A stretch of DNA of 63,681 nt, counting the filler. It is 15 parts of 15 records of this genome, joined end to end, with 100 filler letters (N's around TTAATTAATTAA, not from the genome) between each part and the next. Parts side by side here need not be neighbours in the genome. Positions count along the whole stretch, not along the records: positions 33,259 to 37,475 come from SRR15195285_11995; 14 more parts are not named here. One strand, 5' to 3'. The notes under the pieces are model-generated. The model had not been told where the DNA came from. It saw nothing but the letters and a program-made list of their open reading frames with translations, and searched no databases. The translations under genes and the position numbers were made by a program. Shown here one piece after another: positions 1 through 38,874 of the stretch. Position 1 is the stretch's first letter. Every line of letters starts with the position of its first letter.

Positions 1-244
1 GGTACTAGTATCACACTCCAATTCCAACCCTCACGGATTCCGGAATAATGCCCGGGTTTAGAGGTTGTGGTCGGGAATCTCGTGGCCGTTGGCGGCTCCG
101 CGGATCGATTCGGTCACCGACGTTGCGCGGAAGATCGCGCAGCCTGAGGTGTCTGCTGTCTGCGATGTGCACGGGCGCCCAGCCGCATTAAATAGAGCAC
201 GCAGGACGAGCACTGTGGTTGGACCACCCCGCTGGTGCGAGTGG

Positions 245-3378: not shown

Positions 3379-3478
3379 NNNNNNNNNNNNNNNNNNNNNN
3401 NNNNNNNNNNNNNNNNNNNNNNTTAATTAATTAANNNNNNNNNNNNNNNNNNNNNNNNNNNNNNNNNNNNNNNNNNNN
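3379..3478. other. Artificial contig linker N44-TTAATTAATTAA-N44 (first of 14)
   Basis: Identical 100-nt spacers with stops in all frames at 3379, 7833, 11613, 15166, 19412, 24122, 27246, 33159, 37476, 42149, 45337, 51481, 54946 and 58617. Confidence 0.98.
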
Positions 3479-32766: not shown

Positions 32767-33461
32767 GTGTATTCTGCATTACAGCTGTACCACCGGTGCT
32801 ACAGTACATGTATACTATTCGAATAGTACTATAGCCGCATACTCAGGAAGAGTATGTTTATGTATCTGCATTGCTTGTTCTCCGAGCCAGCCGAGTAGTC
32901 CGGAGTAGAGTTCGGAATTTGCGGTTGCCCACAAAGTTTTGCACCTCCACTTCGGTACTGTACTCTGCGGAAGTACAGTAGTCAGTACTCAAGTACCGTC
33001 AACGGGTAAGGAAATTGTATTCAAGACGTACCTTCTACTAGTGTAACAAGGTAACACCAGTTCTGCATTATCCGGTCAAGGTACACCATTGCTGAGTCTC
33101 CCCTTGCTTAATTGCCCGTCGTGTAGCGCATCATCAGCAGTGTGCGCCTCGAGCAGCTNNNNNNNNNNNNNNNNNNNNNNNNNNNNNNNNNNNNNNNNNN
33201 NNTTAATTAATTAANNNNNNNNNNNNNNNNNNNNNNNNNNNNNNNNNNNNNNNNNNNNGACAATTGTGATTAATACACATGATTCACTGTTCACGGATAT
33301 GATACGATATGATACAATCCTCCTCTGAGGAAGACAACGGCACCAACGTGTATATATATATACCGCGGTACGCGAATTTACGCGCCGCGCGCGGTGGTCG
33401 CGCGACGGACCTGCGTGGCGGCTGCCACGGGCGTGGCGGCGTACAGCGTTGCAGACAACTT

Positions 33462-35854
33462 ATGGAGTGGTCGCTGCCATCCCTCCTGTATGTCAGTGTA
33501 TGTATCATGGCGGCCGCTTCATCTCCTCACGGTGGGGGCCTGCAGCAGCTGACCGGCGGCGTCCCTTTTCCCTCACCGACCACCGTGTAAACACCACTCC
33601 ACTCAATGATTCACCACCATCAGTGCTTGTGCTTGCCATTCACGCTGGCATACGTCTACTATGAACAAATGGTTCGCCAAACGTCAGCTGCCCTCCTGCT
33701 TCCACCTGGTTTAGATGTTGTTGGCTCGGAGCAGGTACCCGAATACGCCCTGGCCATTGCCGAAGCAGATGACAATGGGTGAGCAGACGGTTGTGCTGGC
33801 TCAACGATTGACGTTGTCCTGTGACACCGCTCCTGGGTGTGACCCAGCTGCGTGTGATCCCAACGGGACCGTCAACAAAGCTGTGACCCGCTATGAGCCG
33901 ATCTTGTCTCCAGCCCGAGCACCGTCGCCGGACAACAGTGAAACCATTTTAGACAAGATCCAAGTGTGCGTTGACGATGCTTCCGAGGCACTGGGTCCGG
34001 AGATGAACGAAACCCATGCATTGTCTGTTCCTACGGTATCGGGAGAGCCCGTGCAAATAACTGCTGCGTCGCAGCACGGTGTGTTGCGGGCTTTAGAATC
34101 CCTGGCCCATCTCGTTTCGATCTCACACCCCGGCCGCATCACTACCGCTCCCGTGGAAATCACTGACAGCCCTCGTTGGGGCACGCGTGGTGTGCACGCA
34201 TCCGTTTAGCAGCCATAGTTCTAGCTACATTCACCATGCTCAGCGGCCACCCTGAGTGGTGGCATGTCCCATGCAGGGCTCATGGTCAATCCAGCTGGTC
34301 GATTCATGTCCGTTGCATTCTTGAAGCGAGTTGTAGACGGGCTGGTGGTCAACAAGATGAACTACCTCCACATCCACTTTACAGACGTCAGCTCGTTTCC
34401 GATCGCCTCCGATACTTACCCACAGCTGTCGCGAAAAGGCCGGATCTCCCGACTGGTGTGGAAAAGCTCTGACACCGACGCAGTTTACGCCAAGGCGGAG
34501 CTGCGTTCCCTCGTTGCATACGCAGCTGACAGGGGGGTCAGAGTCGTTCCGGAGATCGAGTAAGCTGTCGGCATCCTTGACCGTTCCACAAAGACGGTCG
34601 GGACCTTCGTTTTGTACTTTTGGTGGCGAGGGTCTCATTCGTTCATCTCGTATGGTGGTGGTGGTGCAGTATGCCGGGTCACGGAGCTTGGAACTATGGC
34701 ATGCCAGAGATTTGTCTCACGAGCTGCCCGTCTGTGCTCGACGTAACTCAGGCCAAAACCTACGACGTCTTGACCAATTTTCTGGGTGAGCTAGCCGATG
34801 TATTTCCAGACCCAGTGCTGATGCTCGGGGGTGACGAGGTCGGGCTGTCCTGCCATGACCCAGCCACTGGAAAACCATTGCTTTCGACCGCATTCGATTT
34901 GGATCTGGCAGCTGCGGCGCGGATGAAAACTTTGGGGATCAACAGCTCTACCGCAACAGATTACTTCTGGCGTCAGATCTCTGGAAAAGTAATGCAGTCT
35001 AAAAAGCTCAAGAACAAAACGTTGCAAGTCTGGTACTGCCCTGACTGTCACACTGGCGATCCACCACTTGAGCAGATGCCGACGGCAACCGTGGCTGATG
35101 TGTGGGGTGCACTCGACTACGCTGCAACTGCGTGCAAGTGCGCATAATTATGCAATCATGCATGGAAATTTCCGTATCTGTTAATTGTAGGCGTGGCATT
35201 CTGACAACATTACACGGTCGTAACGCTTTTTGTAGGTCTGGTTACCGGTCCGTTATGTCAATGTCACGCGGACCTAACGTGACCCGAGGCGAGGGTGGAA
35301 CCGGTTGGTATCTCCCACCATATGGCGGAACGGATGGTGGAATTTGGCCCGGTACGTGGCAGCGAGATCTGGACGCAGAGCTCGGGTCGCGTGGCTGCGA
35401 CAAGAAAGGGCGTGACACCCTGGTGATGGGTGGGTCGGCTGCAGCATGGTCATCGGACTCATCGACATTCGAGTAAGCAGCTGTTGGAAGTCTAACTCTT
35501 CCGCAAAGAAAGCCGTTAAATTTCGTTCTGTTATTTTGCTGGCGAGAGGCTAAGTTGTACACGCGGTACGGTTGTAGCTTCTATACGTGGTCAGGCACTA
35601 TCGGCGTCGCAGAACGGCTGTGGGTTGGCTCTGGCACGACTGGTTCGGATGTGTTCAACCTCACTAATGCCTTGCCAAGACTCGCAGTGCACGCTTGCCG
35701 TATGAAGACCAGGGGTTTCACTGTTTCACAGTACGCGCCGAGCACCTATGCGATGAGCGGAATGAGCCACTGGTGCACTGGAGGAGCGGGTGGCACAGCC
35801 ACGAACGGCAATTTGTGCGCTGCGTGTCCCGCCGAATGGGACTGGCCAGTTTGA
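33462..35854 (+). CDS. Secreted GH20 beta-N-acetylhexosaminidase; 5 introns
   Basis: Introns 33587-33734, 34190-34276, 34560-34669, 35138-35235 and 35473-35577 give PWPLP, DSPRW..RGLMV, NKMNYLHIHFTD, VVPEIDMPGH, catalytic LGGDEV and AERLW. Confidence 0.9.
34560..34669 (+). mobile_element. Introner-like intron, family B copy 1
   Basis: 110-nt intron alignable along its length with 35473-35577 (shared GTAAG, CTGTyGG, TTCCrCAAAGA, TTCGTTyTGT, TTTTGsTGGCGAG). Confidence 0.65.
35473..35577 (+). mobile_element. Introner-like intron, family B copy 2
   Basis: 105-nt intron similar to 34560-34669; both are phase-2 introns placed directly after TCGA. Confidence 0.65.
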
Positions 35855-35950
35855 TGGATGGTAGTGTTAGACAAGCATCAGACGAATTCCGATCCTGTTG
35901 TTCGATGTTATTCATGATCTGTCACTATCTAGTCCGGGTTCGAACCGGGT

Positions 35951-37315
35951 TCAAGTCCACACGCGCATGCTCAGTACTGCCACCACGTTCCCATCGCTTG
36001 CACGTCCACCGTAGAGCACCGGCGCGCACACAATCTCGTCACTGAAATTCAATTCAAAGTGGTCAGTCAGTTCCGAACCCATGATAGCGGTCGTCGCTTT
36101 CACTTTCGATTTGTGGGGATCCTCGTCGTCGTCGTCTTCATCATCCGTGTCGCAGTCCATGAAACAGAAGCCTTTTGAGGCCTTCGGACCAGAGTAGTCC
36201 TTGGGCGTCACCCGCGCCTCATTCAACAGATTCTTCCCGTCAACGTGGTGCTTGAGTCCAAGCGCAGACAACAAGCGGCGCGTGGGCGGCACGCCCGTAG
36301 AACCTGCGCCAGTGATGACCACCACCCGTCCTTGCGTGTCGCTCTCGCTAGCTGGGAGCCAGGCACTAGCCAGGGCTAGGCTCATGCGCCGTGCGACACC
36401 CCCAGGAGTAGGTGGTGCATCCTTGATATCCTTGTGCGTAACCGCACCATCCGCCAAATTCTCCTCCCCGCCGCCACCCACTAGCCACGATGTGCCGGAG
36501 CCAGACTCTTCCGATAGCGCCGCAGCCGAGACTGGTTTTTCCATGTACAACGCAGCGGCGCTAATCGAACCAGTGCCCGCCCCCTGCGTCCCCGTTTTCT
36601 GTCGCTTGCGAGGGCGGCCCGCGGTCAGCATCGCTTGCACGTCCTTGTGTGCTATGTCAAGTGGCGTCTTGCCGTCACTAGTCTTGACGGCAACGTCCGC
36701 GCCGTGATTCAACAGGAACTCGACGGTCTCAGCGTTCCCCGCCTCTGCAGCCTGGTGTAACGCCGACCACCGTCCGGCTGGCTGACAGTTGACATATCCC
36801 GAATTCTGAGTTACGAGTGCGCAAACAGCTTCGAAGTCGTAATCCTTGGCCTTGTCCAAAAATTGATGTTGCTGAGTTACTGTAGGGTGGGCTTGTTCGG
36901 GCGTGTCAGCTGCGCCCGTGCCCGTGGAGGTTGAGCCAGAGAAAGCTGCACTCACTTCCGCCTGCTGTGTGGGACCAAGTGTAGCGAACCCCTCGACGGC
37001 GCTCGCGTCTCCGCCGGCGTTCTGCGCGACTTTGGGGGTGATGCAGCTCACGCATCGCCACGCGTACGACGAGGTGCCTGCTCCGATCAATCAGTCGCTT
37101 GTTCAGACAGTAAGAGTACAGTCGTACAGCTGCTCCTATTCCTACGCAAACGGTGCGCGAAAACTGATCTATACTGTGTACACCCTGCAGATACCGTTGA
37201 TTTCGACGAGCGTCCCTAAGCGAGCGGCGCCCTTGGGGATCGCTGCTTTGCAGCTGCCCTTGCACTTGCTGCGCCCGCTCTTCGCCGCCTCCAGCCGATA
37301 CTTGAAGCTCGACAT
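35951..37315 (-). CDS. PARP-type zinc finger + ankyrin repeats + NLS + NuiA-like C-terminal domain; 1 intron
   Basis: ATG 37315: YRLEAAKSGRSKCKGSCKAAIPKG..RLG; intron 37078-37194; WRCVSC; ankyrin WSALHQAA..GNAETVEFLLNHGADV..DGKTPLDIA; basic RPRKRQK; SESD...LYGGRASDGNVVAVLSMRVWT-stop. Confidence 0.75.
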
Positions 37316-37575
37316 CGACCGTGCTATACCCTACCCGGGGCTGCGTATTGCCGTGATGCGTCTAGACACAGCTGCCGCGGTATATACATTCTAATATATC
37401 CGGATCGCAGCTATAGAGCTACTGTACGCTATCCGGATCTCGCGCGGGTGCGCGGCGCGCGAGCTCTGCAGCAAANNNNNNNNNNNNNNNNNNNNNNNNN
37501 NNNNNNNNNNNNNNNNNNNTTAATTAATTAANNNNNNNNNNNNNNNNNNNNNNNNNNNNNNNNNNNNNNNNNNNN

Positions 37576-38874
37576 CCGGAGCCAGAGCCGGAGCCAGAGC
37601 CGGAGACAGAACTGGAGACAGAGACGAAGGACGGACCAGTTGTGTTCTCGTCGCTGGCGGAGGTCCCCGATGAGCTGCTGCGGCAGCGCACGCCTGGCGC
37701 GCCACTGCGCGGCTCGATGTTCCCTGACCGACTACAGCGCGCTGCTGGGGATGGCGTGGATGGCGACGAGGCGACCGATGCGCCGCTCCGTGCGATGCTC
37801 AAGCGGTGCATCAGGGTGCTGCCGCACCATAACGATACAGGAGGATTCTTTGTAGCTGTATTTCGACGAGATTGTGAGGAAGGCACCGAAGACAGGGAGC
37901 GAGTGGTAGGCAGCAAAGGTGAAGCAGCGCAGCAACCAGCGACAGCAACAGGCACTACTGATGATGATAGCGACGACAACGAGCAGCAGCCACTGCATCA
38001 CGACGAGGCGGTAGCGAGTGACATCGAAGCGGATACTGTTGGGCGCAGCGATGATGCCATCATCCCAGACGTCAGCATCATCGAGGGTCCTGGTGCTGGG
38101 TGCATGTTCTACGCCAGGCAGCGTTACGCTCTTTTGAACAGCGACACGCGCAGCCCCGTACTTGACGGAATCTGGTCCTCCATTGCTGACTTCTACGGTC
38201 TGCCGTCCTGCGACGGAGCGATCACAACAGAAGGGCGCTCTGACGACAGCAACGGTGGTGGTTTCGGTCTAGTGCAAAAGAATCTGGCAGTGGTGTTTGA
38301 CCCCGATGGCCAGGCACGCAAATTAGATCTGCTGTCACCAGCACTCCGCGATTTCCTTCGCGGTGATGTTGGGGAGCAGACACGCTTGCAGTTTGTCTCG
38401 CTGGGGATGCGAGCCTTCAAACGGCTCGAGCCGGGTTTTCTCAAGCCGGCGCGCTGCCGTTGGCGGCCTTGCCACGAGAGTGCAGAGTATATCAGCCGAG
38501 CCGCGACTCGACGCCGGCTGCGGTTGGCACGCGAGCCTCTGCTCGATTTTTTGACGCGCGGGCGGATGGATATAGGGCAGCTTTATCAGTTGGAGCGTGA
38601 TGGTCTTGCTGTCGGGCTGGCGGCAGAGTGCGACGCGTGGCCAGAGATCACGGCGCAAAGCATTGGTGGCATCGTCGTCGGTTGCTTGCTAGAGCCACCA
38701 GCCGCGGCTACAGGTAGTAGCCACGGCAAGGAGGAAGAGGAGAAGGAGGAGCATGGCGTTTCATCGGCGGCACGGATCTGGGTGGCGGGAGCATTGACTG
38801 GAAAGCAGCTTGAATCGTACGCAGATAAGGCTGAGCTGGTGATGGCTCGTGAGCTGCTTGAACAATCACACTGA
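37576..38874 (+). CDS. NSUN2: NSUN2/Trm4-like tRNA cytosine-5 methyltransferase, C-terminal part (5'-truncated)
   Basis: SMFP, LKRCIRVLPHHNDTGGFFVAVF, LQFVSLGMRAF and CRWR match the NSUN2 motif VIII-X region and PUA-like tail. Confidence 0.75.
   Translation, partial: PEPEPEPEPETELETETKDGPVVFSSLAEVPDELLRQRTPGAPLRGSMFPDRLQRAAGDGVDGDEATDAPLRAMLKRCIRVLPHHNDTGGFFVAVFRRDCEEGTEDRERVVGSKGEAAQQPATATGTTDDDSDDNEQQPLHHDEAVASDIEADTVGRSDDAIIPDVSIIEGPGAGCMFYARQRYALLNSDTRSPVLDGIWSSIADFYGLPSCDGAITTEGRSDDSNGGGFGLVQKNLAVVFDPDGQARKLDLLSPALRDFLRGDVGEQTRLQFVSLGMRAFKRLEPGFLKPARCRWRPCHESAEYISRAATRRRLRLAREPLLDFLTRGRMDIGQLYQLERDGLAVGLAAECDAWPEITAQSIGGIVVGCLLEPPAAATGSSHGKEEEEKEEHGVSSAARIWVAGALTGKQLESYADKAELVMARELLEQSH

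Follow-up and report, generated by a model that had tools for sequence, protein, structure and literature searches.

A eukaryotic protein family joining a NuiA-like domain, a candidate nuclease inhibitor, to a PARP-type finger and other modules of DNA breaks and chromatin

To our knowledge, protein inhibitors of EndoG/NucA-type nucleases are known in few cases, such as cyanobacterial NuiA and Drosophila EndoGI. The C-terminal Thr of NuiA is described as directly coordinating the catalytic Mg2+ of NucA through a metal-ion bridge (PMC5587815, PMC2790893), and an inferred D121–E24 contact across the 2O3B interface is mentioned (PMC5374557). EndoGI, which guards DNA in the nucleus against an EndoG-type nuclease, is likewise said to engage the active-site metal shell, with a helical tandem-repeat architecture from which the NuiA fold is distinctly different (PMC2790893). 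A broader precedent given in the same text is ICAD/DFF45, the inhibitor-chaperone that controls the DNA-degrading apoptotic nuclease CAD in eukaryotic nuclei (PMC2790893). Here we analysed a stretch of DNA of 63,681 nucleotides from a marine protist (hereafter, the window) and found in it, on the minus strand, a two-exon gene (37315..35951) whose 415-aa product consists of a PARP-type finger, an ankyrin module, a basic disordered linker and an acidic C-terminal domain, the last of which is predicted to adopt the NuiA fold.

NuiA (PF07924; 2O3B chain B, 1J57) is a stand-alone protein of 135 aa encoded beside nucA, whereas the window protein is eukaryotic and carries its NuiA-like domain fused to DNA-binding modules. 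The genuine NuiA used for comparison comes from plasmid pCC7120alpha of Nostoc sp. PCC 7120, which bears two nuiA genes, each adjoining and convergent with a gene for a non-specific endonuclease (nucA). The two nucA–nuiA pairs, at 385-392 kb and 275-282 kb, each lie within ~2 kb of the same pair of genes, for a clan AA aspartic protease and a hypothetical protein, so that the block looks duplicated. The window domain shares with NuiA one fold over the whole of the latter (132 of 135 residues), an S-E-S-[DE] loop, a D-aromatic pair and a last-residue Thr in register, and an acidic character; it differs in sequence (17–19% identity, no Pfam or PDB sequence match), in carrying an add-on of 47 aa and an acidic insertion of 14 aa, and in that nuclease inhibition is argued here by analogy. 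The likeness to EndoGI (PDB 3ISM) is confined to the role that we propose for the window protein, the folds being unrelated and EndoGI having no DNA-break-sensing module. With ICAD/DFF45 it shares a concept, that of a dedicated protein inhibitor of a nuclear nuclease, whereas fold and nuclease class are unrelated and ICAD is regulated by caspase cleavage.

The conserved acidic C-terminal domain comprises ~200 aa (36556..35954) and divides into an N-terminal add-on of ~47 aa (36416..36556, on the minus strand like all features of the gene) and an acidic NuiA-like core of 154 aa (35954..36415), which Foldseek, VIA-align and hhalign all align to NuiA. The preliminary description of the locus, read from the sequence, had given the domain ~150 aa; the conserved domain is longer than that, with the add-on preceding the core. 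Modelled with AlphaFold on a 24-sequence alignment (pLDDT 89.2, pTM 0.87), the 214-aa C-terminal segment displays the central sheet flanked by helices, over ~135 residues, that characterizes NuiA. The add-on, conserved in the family alignment with an invariant Trp, forms a strand (residues 15-18) and a helix (24-31) in the model; it corresponds to segment residues 12-60, outside the NuiA-aligned range of 61..214, and is absent from NuiA. The acidic insertion DCDTDDEDDDDEDP (14 aa, 36116..36157), aligned by hhalign to the shorter EDEEN patch of NuiA, is a low-confidence loop, with pLDDT of 64-79 in model blocks 141-160.

Searched against the PDB with Foldseek, the model retrieved NuiA in complex with NucA (2o3b_B; E 2.2e-6, probability 1.00, TM 0.76 on the target, 17% identity) as its single match at E<=1e-3; free NuiA (1j57) came next at E 7.2e-3, and nothing else fell below 0.1. 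When the top 1000 Foldseek chains were re-aligned with VIA-align, 2o3b_B reached Z 12.2 (rmsd 2.8 Å over 132/135 residues, 19% identity), against Z 4.0 for Maf1, the next unrelated fold. Structural matches to Maf1 and PCNA, at Z 3-4, were set aside as background. Because model residues 61..214 align on residues 2..135 of 2o3b_B, the two C-termini coincide and the whole of NuiA is covered. Run independently over 48,161 representative chains, a further search again placed NuiA first, 1j57_A (Z 5.1) being the sole chain with Z>=5. The NuiA-like structure anticipated from the sequence in the preliminary description is thus borne out by the model. The nearest named clusters of the ESM Atlas by language-model features (0.88-0.90) carry NuiA or NuiA_2 (PF23151): two are cyanobacterial (0.90, 0.88) and one is largely ascomycete (0.90), so that for some eukaryotes (Ascomycota) NuiA-like proteins are on record already. 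The proteins of these clusters, of ~110-165 aa, match the Pfam NuiA models, whereas none of 52 window-family members does, and we take the cluster kinship as one lead rather than as proof.

Comparison of profiles points the same way, with a signal to NuiA that is weak but real in global mode. Aligned by hhalign to a single NuiA, the 24-sequence profile gave a non-significant E of 0.41 in a collinear arrangement that sets LPASESDT on LFMSESEY. Larger profiles, made of the window domain with 99 domain-spanning relatives (80/179 having been dropped as partial) and of 122 NuiA sequences, scored 15.9 in global mode (P 0.0044) and 22.5 in local mode (P 0.0072); the corresponding values for 100 column shuffles of the NuiA alignment were 2.0 ± 2.2 (maximum 9.1) and 12.4 ± 2.7 (maximum 24.1), and for reversed controls 2.6 and 13.5. 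Taking fold, key residues and profiles together, we hold homology of the C-terminal domain to NuiA to be very likely. The domain nevertheless stands outside PF07924: it fails the Pfam test, though by fold and key residues it is a NuiA relative.

Three elements of the domain fall on positions of NuiA that matter for the argument. The S-E-S-D loop (36338..36349; S83-E84-S85-D86) aligns to NuiA S23-E24-S25-E26 and the D-Y pair (36194..36199; D133-Y134) to D75-W76, both in hhalign, and T214, whose codon (35954..35956) directly precedes the stop, is superposed by VIA-align on NuiA Thr135. In the 2007 paper on the NucA–NuiA complex, Glu24 reportedly enters the active site and Asp75/Trp76 are said to form a second contact site. 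The SESD/SESE pairing was obtained by sequence-profile alignment in two hhalign runs and not read from the superposition; the hhalign residue offsets agree with the VIA-align ranges. Across 100 domain-complete sequences (the window domain and its 99 relatives), compared with the 122 NuiA sequences, the Glu column of SESD holds E in 84 and D in 7 (NuiA E24: E in 122/122), the Asp column D in 65 and N in 15 (NuiA: D in 119/122), and the aromatic column an aromatic residue in 92 (W 54, F 20, Y 18; NuiA: W in 122/122). The protein stops exactly at the aligned Thr in 87/100 (NuiA: Thr in 121/122), and many of the dropped partial sequences likewise end in RVWT. The reading of the sequence had already singled out the Glu and the terminal Thr with its free C-terminus as retained, and the counts agree on both. 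All 100 domains are acidic, with a median net charge of -18 (range -32 to -3), compared with -12 for NuiA. Invariant in the 24-sequence alignment are L-P-x-x-E-x-D-T, L-G, F-E, P-x-L-x-G-G and the terminal L-S-M-R-V-W-T.

The gene begins with exon 1 (37195..37315), which contains the ATG (37315..37313) and the N-terminal half of the finger with its first Cys pair, CKGSC. It is followed by an intron of 117 nt with GT..AG ends (37078..37194), which if retained would bring an in-frame TAG (37168..37166), and by exon 2 (35951..37077), part of an open frame at 35951..37090 that ends in ...LSMRVWT and the stop codon at 35953..35951. The spliced product of 415 aa has no internal stop and is collinear with relatives P0004 and P0006 (412 and 409 aa), which are ~75% identical to the window protein in the C-terminal domain; the junction, free of insertions or deletions, reads ...VEIN-G-TSSY..., against ...VEINGSSSY... 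in these two. The order of finger, ankyrin module and C-terminal domain is contiguous also in transcript-derived proteins, namely a complete Trinity open reading frame from Biecheleria cincta (P0024), the MMETSP proteins P0031, P0075 and P0304, and an Amphidinium carterae member of the P0304 cluster. Parts of the stretch are contained in 20 public runs, 19 of them recorded as RNA, and the four marine RNA runs that were examined yield contigs over the 3' end and over parts of exon 2. One RNA-library contig of 584 nt (36603..37184) carries a 2-base insertion at 37162 and 3 substitutions over its length, a pattern suggesting that the sea water sampled contained a closely related strain. The splicing is thus supported by homologues and not by reads, and the RNA contigs neither confirm nor refute it.

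PARP1 (through fingers 1 and 2) and DNA ligase III bind nicks and ends through a PARP-type zinc finger. In the window protein, zf-PARP (PF00645) matches exon 1 at profile positions 1-31 (E 2.4e-8, 35.1 bits) and the start of exon 2 at positions 39-86 (E 0.075, 14.2 bits), so that the two exons carry complementary halves of one domain. The finger was scored only as these two pieces, against a gathering score of 39.3 bits, which intact fingers of relatives exceed (68.2, 65.0 and 59.1 bits). Its C-terminal half (36941..37077) contains WRCVSC, in which Cys replaces the canonical His, and the four potential ligands, C-x3-C ... C-x2-C (CKGSC ... WRCVSC), make it the C4 variant that had been recognized at the outset, corrected in one respect: the first Cys pair is spaced by three residues and not by the canonical two. 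The fingers of relatives follow C-x2-C...C-x2-C, and those of PARP1 and DNA ligase III C-x2-C...H-x2-C. The window protein has a single finger and neither an ADP-ribosyl transferase nor a ligase domain; the NuiA-like domain occupies the place of the catalytic part of PARP1, and the WGR and BRCT modules found as partners elsewhere in the family are PARP1's own.

The ankyrin module (36626..36874), of ~2 repeats and a capping helix, is matched by Ank_2 (PF12796; E 1.5e-9, 38.7 bits, cut-off 27.3; residues 82-147 of the long frame) and Ank (PF00023; E 5.6e-8, 33.1 bits, cut-off 21.1). It is followed, in a disordered linker, by the basic patch RPRKRQK (36596..36616), a candidate nuclear localisation signal; ankyrin repeats and patch, both listed in the preliminary description, are present. 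A full-length model of P0004 (8-sequence alignment, pLDDT 79) consists of three folded blocks, 1-90, 104-195 and 212-412, with disordered linkers between them. The finger block (1-90) has a pLDDT of about 80-90, the ankyrin-equivalent block (104-195) is helical, and the second linker (196-211), which holds the basic patch, has a pLDDT <50. When a full-length relative was searched by sequence against the PDB, ankyrin proteins were the only matches.

The gene is one of many. A word-indexed search yielded 40 relatives, and when 1.84 billion representatives were searched in full with an HMM, 171 passed E<=1e-3, of which 120 reached E<=1e-10 and 37 reached E<=1e-30; with 171 and 120 homologous representatives at the first two thresholds, the gene pattern is far beyond chance. 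The few named members belong to the diatom Pseudo-nitzschia and the dinoflagellates Biecheleria, Alexandrium, Symbiodinium and Amphidinium; a Prymnesium record has the finger–ankyrin half. A Pfam scan of 62 longer relatives recognized no partner module in 42 and, in the others, zf-PARP with ankyrin (3), BRCT with ankyrin (1), WGR (3), SAP (1), an HMG box (1), a ubiquitin-like domain (4), ankyrin, alone or beside another module (11), and TMEM144 (1, possibly a mis-join). Five further finger–ankyrin fusions were found outside this survey, and a search with the finger and ankyrin half brought mostly generic ankyrin proteins, with a few extra finger–ankyrin and BRCT–ankyrin relatives. Many diatom members are stand-alone proteins of ~210 aa that start at the domain itself. 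In one branch (P0106, P0108, P0146 and P0155) a ubiquitin-like domain directly precedes the NuiA-like domain (4/62 relatives; 6/52 in the diverse set), an arrangement that the nuclease-inhibitor reading leaves unexplained.

The family is an unannotated eukaryotic one, with recurrent fusions to modules of DNA breaks or of chromatin. PARP1 senses DNA breaks through its zinc finger, BRCT and WGR parts, and SAP and HMG boxes bind DNA; fusion to WGR, BRCT, SAP and HMG box fits targeting to DNA or DNA breaks, and the partners provide an independent context for action on DNA or chromatin. The fusion to zf-PARP noted at the outset is accordingly one of several in the survey. The literature, searched outside subscription journals and supplements, yielded no description of the family or of this architecture, in agreement with the novelty first claimed for it, and no match for nuclease A inhibitor combined with PARP and zinc finger; among the matches listed, NuiA was not seen paired with WGR, BRCT, immunity protein, EndoG inhibitor or dinoflagellate.

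We put at about 0.5 the probability of the whole reading, that is, of a break-targeted protein whose NuiA-fold domain blocks an EndoG/NucA-type nuclease. On this reading the acidic domain would act as NuiA does and plug a beta-beta-alpha-metal nuclease (EndoG/NucA/Serratia family) at its active site, with the terminal Thr sitting on the catalytic metal and the SESD Glu mimicking the scissile phosphate. The finger, or WGR, BRCT, SAP or HMG in relatives, would concentrate the inhibitor on nicked or broken DNA in the nucleus, where the bound inhibitor would keep a nuclease that has strayed, or that acts in programmed death, from widening the damage. The 415-aa protein is probably nuclear; inhibition of an EndoG/NucA-type nuclease by the domain and binding of nicks by the non-canonical finger are what we infer from kinship and context. 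Such a protein would be a functional analogue of Drosophila EndoGI on a different fold.

Several results weigh against this reading. At the level of sequence, genuine NuiA scores 180-191 bits with the Pfam NuiA model, and the window's C-terminal domain matches no Pfam family at E<=10; 0/52 diverse relatives match PF07924 (NuiA) or PF23151 (NuiA_2) at E<=10, a profile search of the PDB with the domain gave no match at E<=10, BLASTP of the window's domain against genuine NuiA gave a non-significant E of 1.7, and in the profile–profile comparison the hhalign probability was only 3-5%, with at least one of the 100 shuffles beating the local score. As to structure, the NMR structure of free NuiA matches at Z 5.1 only, and neither the 47-aa add-on nor the 14-aa acidic insertion has a counterpart in NuiA. 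The finger departs from the canonical C-x2-C ... H-x2-C in its x3 spacing and its Cys for His, and two finger–ankyrin–NuiA-like relatives, P0024 (CKVSK / WRKLKC) and P0092 (CKASK / WRKLEY), have lost ligands, so that zinc-dependent nick binding is not assured throughout the family; fingers of the P0024/P0092 type may work without zinc in some lineages, or be decaying. No splice junction was seen in the RNA contigs of the four marine runs, and the 584-nt contig passes the acceptor from exon 2 into the intron, which makes it unspliced RNA or carried-over DNA. Finally, Pfam scans of the 38 long open frames across all 15 contig pieces that make up the window recognized no nuclease. The joining of the finger exon to the rest, asserted in the preliminary description, is upheld by contiguity in homologous transcripts, and the organism's own RNA contigs show no junction for or against it. 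The gene itself lies where it was first placed, on the minus strand, and none of the outcomes that the preliminary description had set against itself (dissimilarity to NuiA, a variable terminal Thr, a finger exon seen not to be spliced to the rest) was found.

Among the alternatives, the best placed is that the NuiA fold has been kept for a changed job, the acidic domain binding another partner (a basic chromatin protein, a repair enzyme or a different metal enzyme) or acting as a DNA mimic at damage sites, with the terminus serving that partner. An identity to NuiA of just 17-19%, the extra add-on and long acidic insertion, the lack of a nuclease partner in the window's contig pieces, and ubiquitin-like fusions that do not by themselves indicate nucleases all speak for it, as does the fact that the most conserved columns (P192, R211, F180, G196 and G197) have no known role in NuiA. 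Yet all three elements aligned to the reported contact points of NuiA are kept in register, and exact termination at Thr in 87/100 sequences is hard to attribute to the stability of the fold alone, so that we consider a changed job unlikely, though worth keeping in view.

The evidence from fold and motifs that the domain binds a nuclease serves equally for an inhibitor-chaperone like ICAD/DFF45, which would hold a beta-beta-alpha-metal nuclease inactive while the finger, WGR or BRCT carries the pair to breaks, and would release it there for end processing or in programmed cell death. Break-sensing fusions fit the recruitment of an activity as well as its blocking, and ICAD is a precedent (PMC2790893). 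Against such a chaperone, the sequence suggests no release switch (protease sites and degrons were not looked for), and the stand-alone diatom forms of ~210 aa have no targeting module. On balance, a releasing chaperone seems to us rather improbable.

That the protein guards instead against foreign NucA-type nucleases, from bacteria, prey or viruses, and not against the cell's own EndoG, has still less to recommend it. The named members are marine phytoplankton, which live with bacteria, and the native role of NuiA is protection against a secreted nuclease (PMC13522737, PMC2790893). Fusion to nuclear DNA-damage modules, however, indicates an endogenous nuclear role, and the viral structure library BFVD gave no look-alike of the fold at E<=1e-3; we give an immunity function little credence. 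We regard as very improbable a gene-model artefact, in which the finger exon came from another transcript or were a pseudo-exon and the real product were ankyrin module plus C-terminal domain, for although the RNA runs show no junction and one contig that crosses from exon 2 into the intron, database protein P0001 (98% identical) begins downstream of the finger and the contig piece stops 160 nt upstream of the ATG, one Pfam domain is divided between the two exons in halves that complement each other (profile 1-31 and 39-86), phase-compatible splicing between GT..AG ends yields the 415 aa, and the finger is contiguous with the rest in P0004, P0006 and dinoflagellate or MMETSP transcripts.

The window consists of 15 contig pieces of ~3-6 kb joined by 14 identical spacers, each made of a 12-base all-frame stop linker between two N-runs (at 3423, 7877, 11657, 15210, 19456, 24166, 27290, 33203, 37520, 42193, 45381, 51525, 54990 and 58661). 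Since these are separate contig pieces and not a continuous run of chromosome, the order of genes from one piece to the next carries no meaning. The piece with the gene spans 33259..37475, ending 160 nt upstream of the ATG, and holds besides it only a convergent, multi-exon gene for a GH20 beta-hexosaminidase (33715-35147, plus strand; Glycohydro_20b2 and Glyco_hydro_20 matches). The next piece opens with an open frame (37576-38871, plus strand) that has a Pro-Glu repeat at the contig edge and a weak match to the NSUN2 pre-PUA domain (E 6.6e-5); it is probably what the contig end has left of an RNA methyltransferase gene, its 3' part.

The family defines a domain that current Pfam models miss, and from its sequences we predict that inhibition would depend on each of three features, the SESD Glu, the D-aromatic pair and the terminal Thr. 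Programmed cell death shapes algal blooms, and the family is a testable candidate for guarding nuclear DNA from EndoG in ecologically dominant algae. Tentatively, marine phytoplankton (diatoms, dinoflagellates and the present protist) may possess a NuiA-type inhibitor system of their own, which in several lineages would have taken the place of the catalytic end in break sensors of the PARP1 kind (zf-PARP, WGR, BRCT) and would silence an EndoG-type nuclease at nicks and breaks. In the family the break-sensing modules of PARP1 are reused to deliver something other than ADP-ribosylation. The finding points to a so far undescribed means of keeping nucleases off broken DNA and, if the proposed function is true, would add a further level to the control of DNA degradation during repair and programmed cell death.

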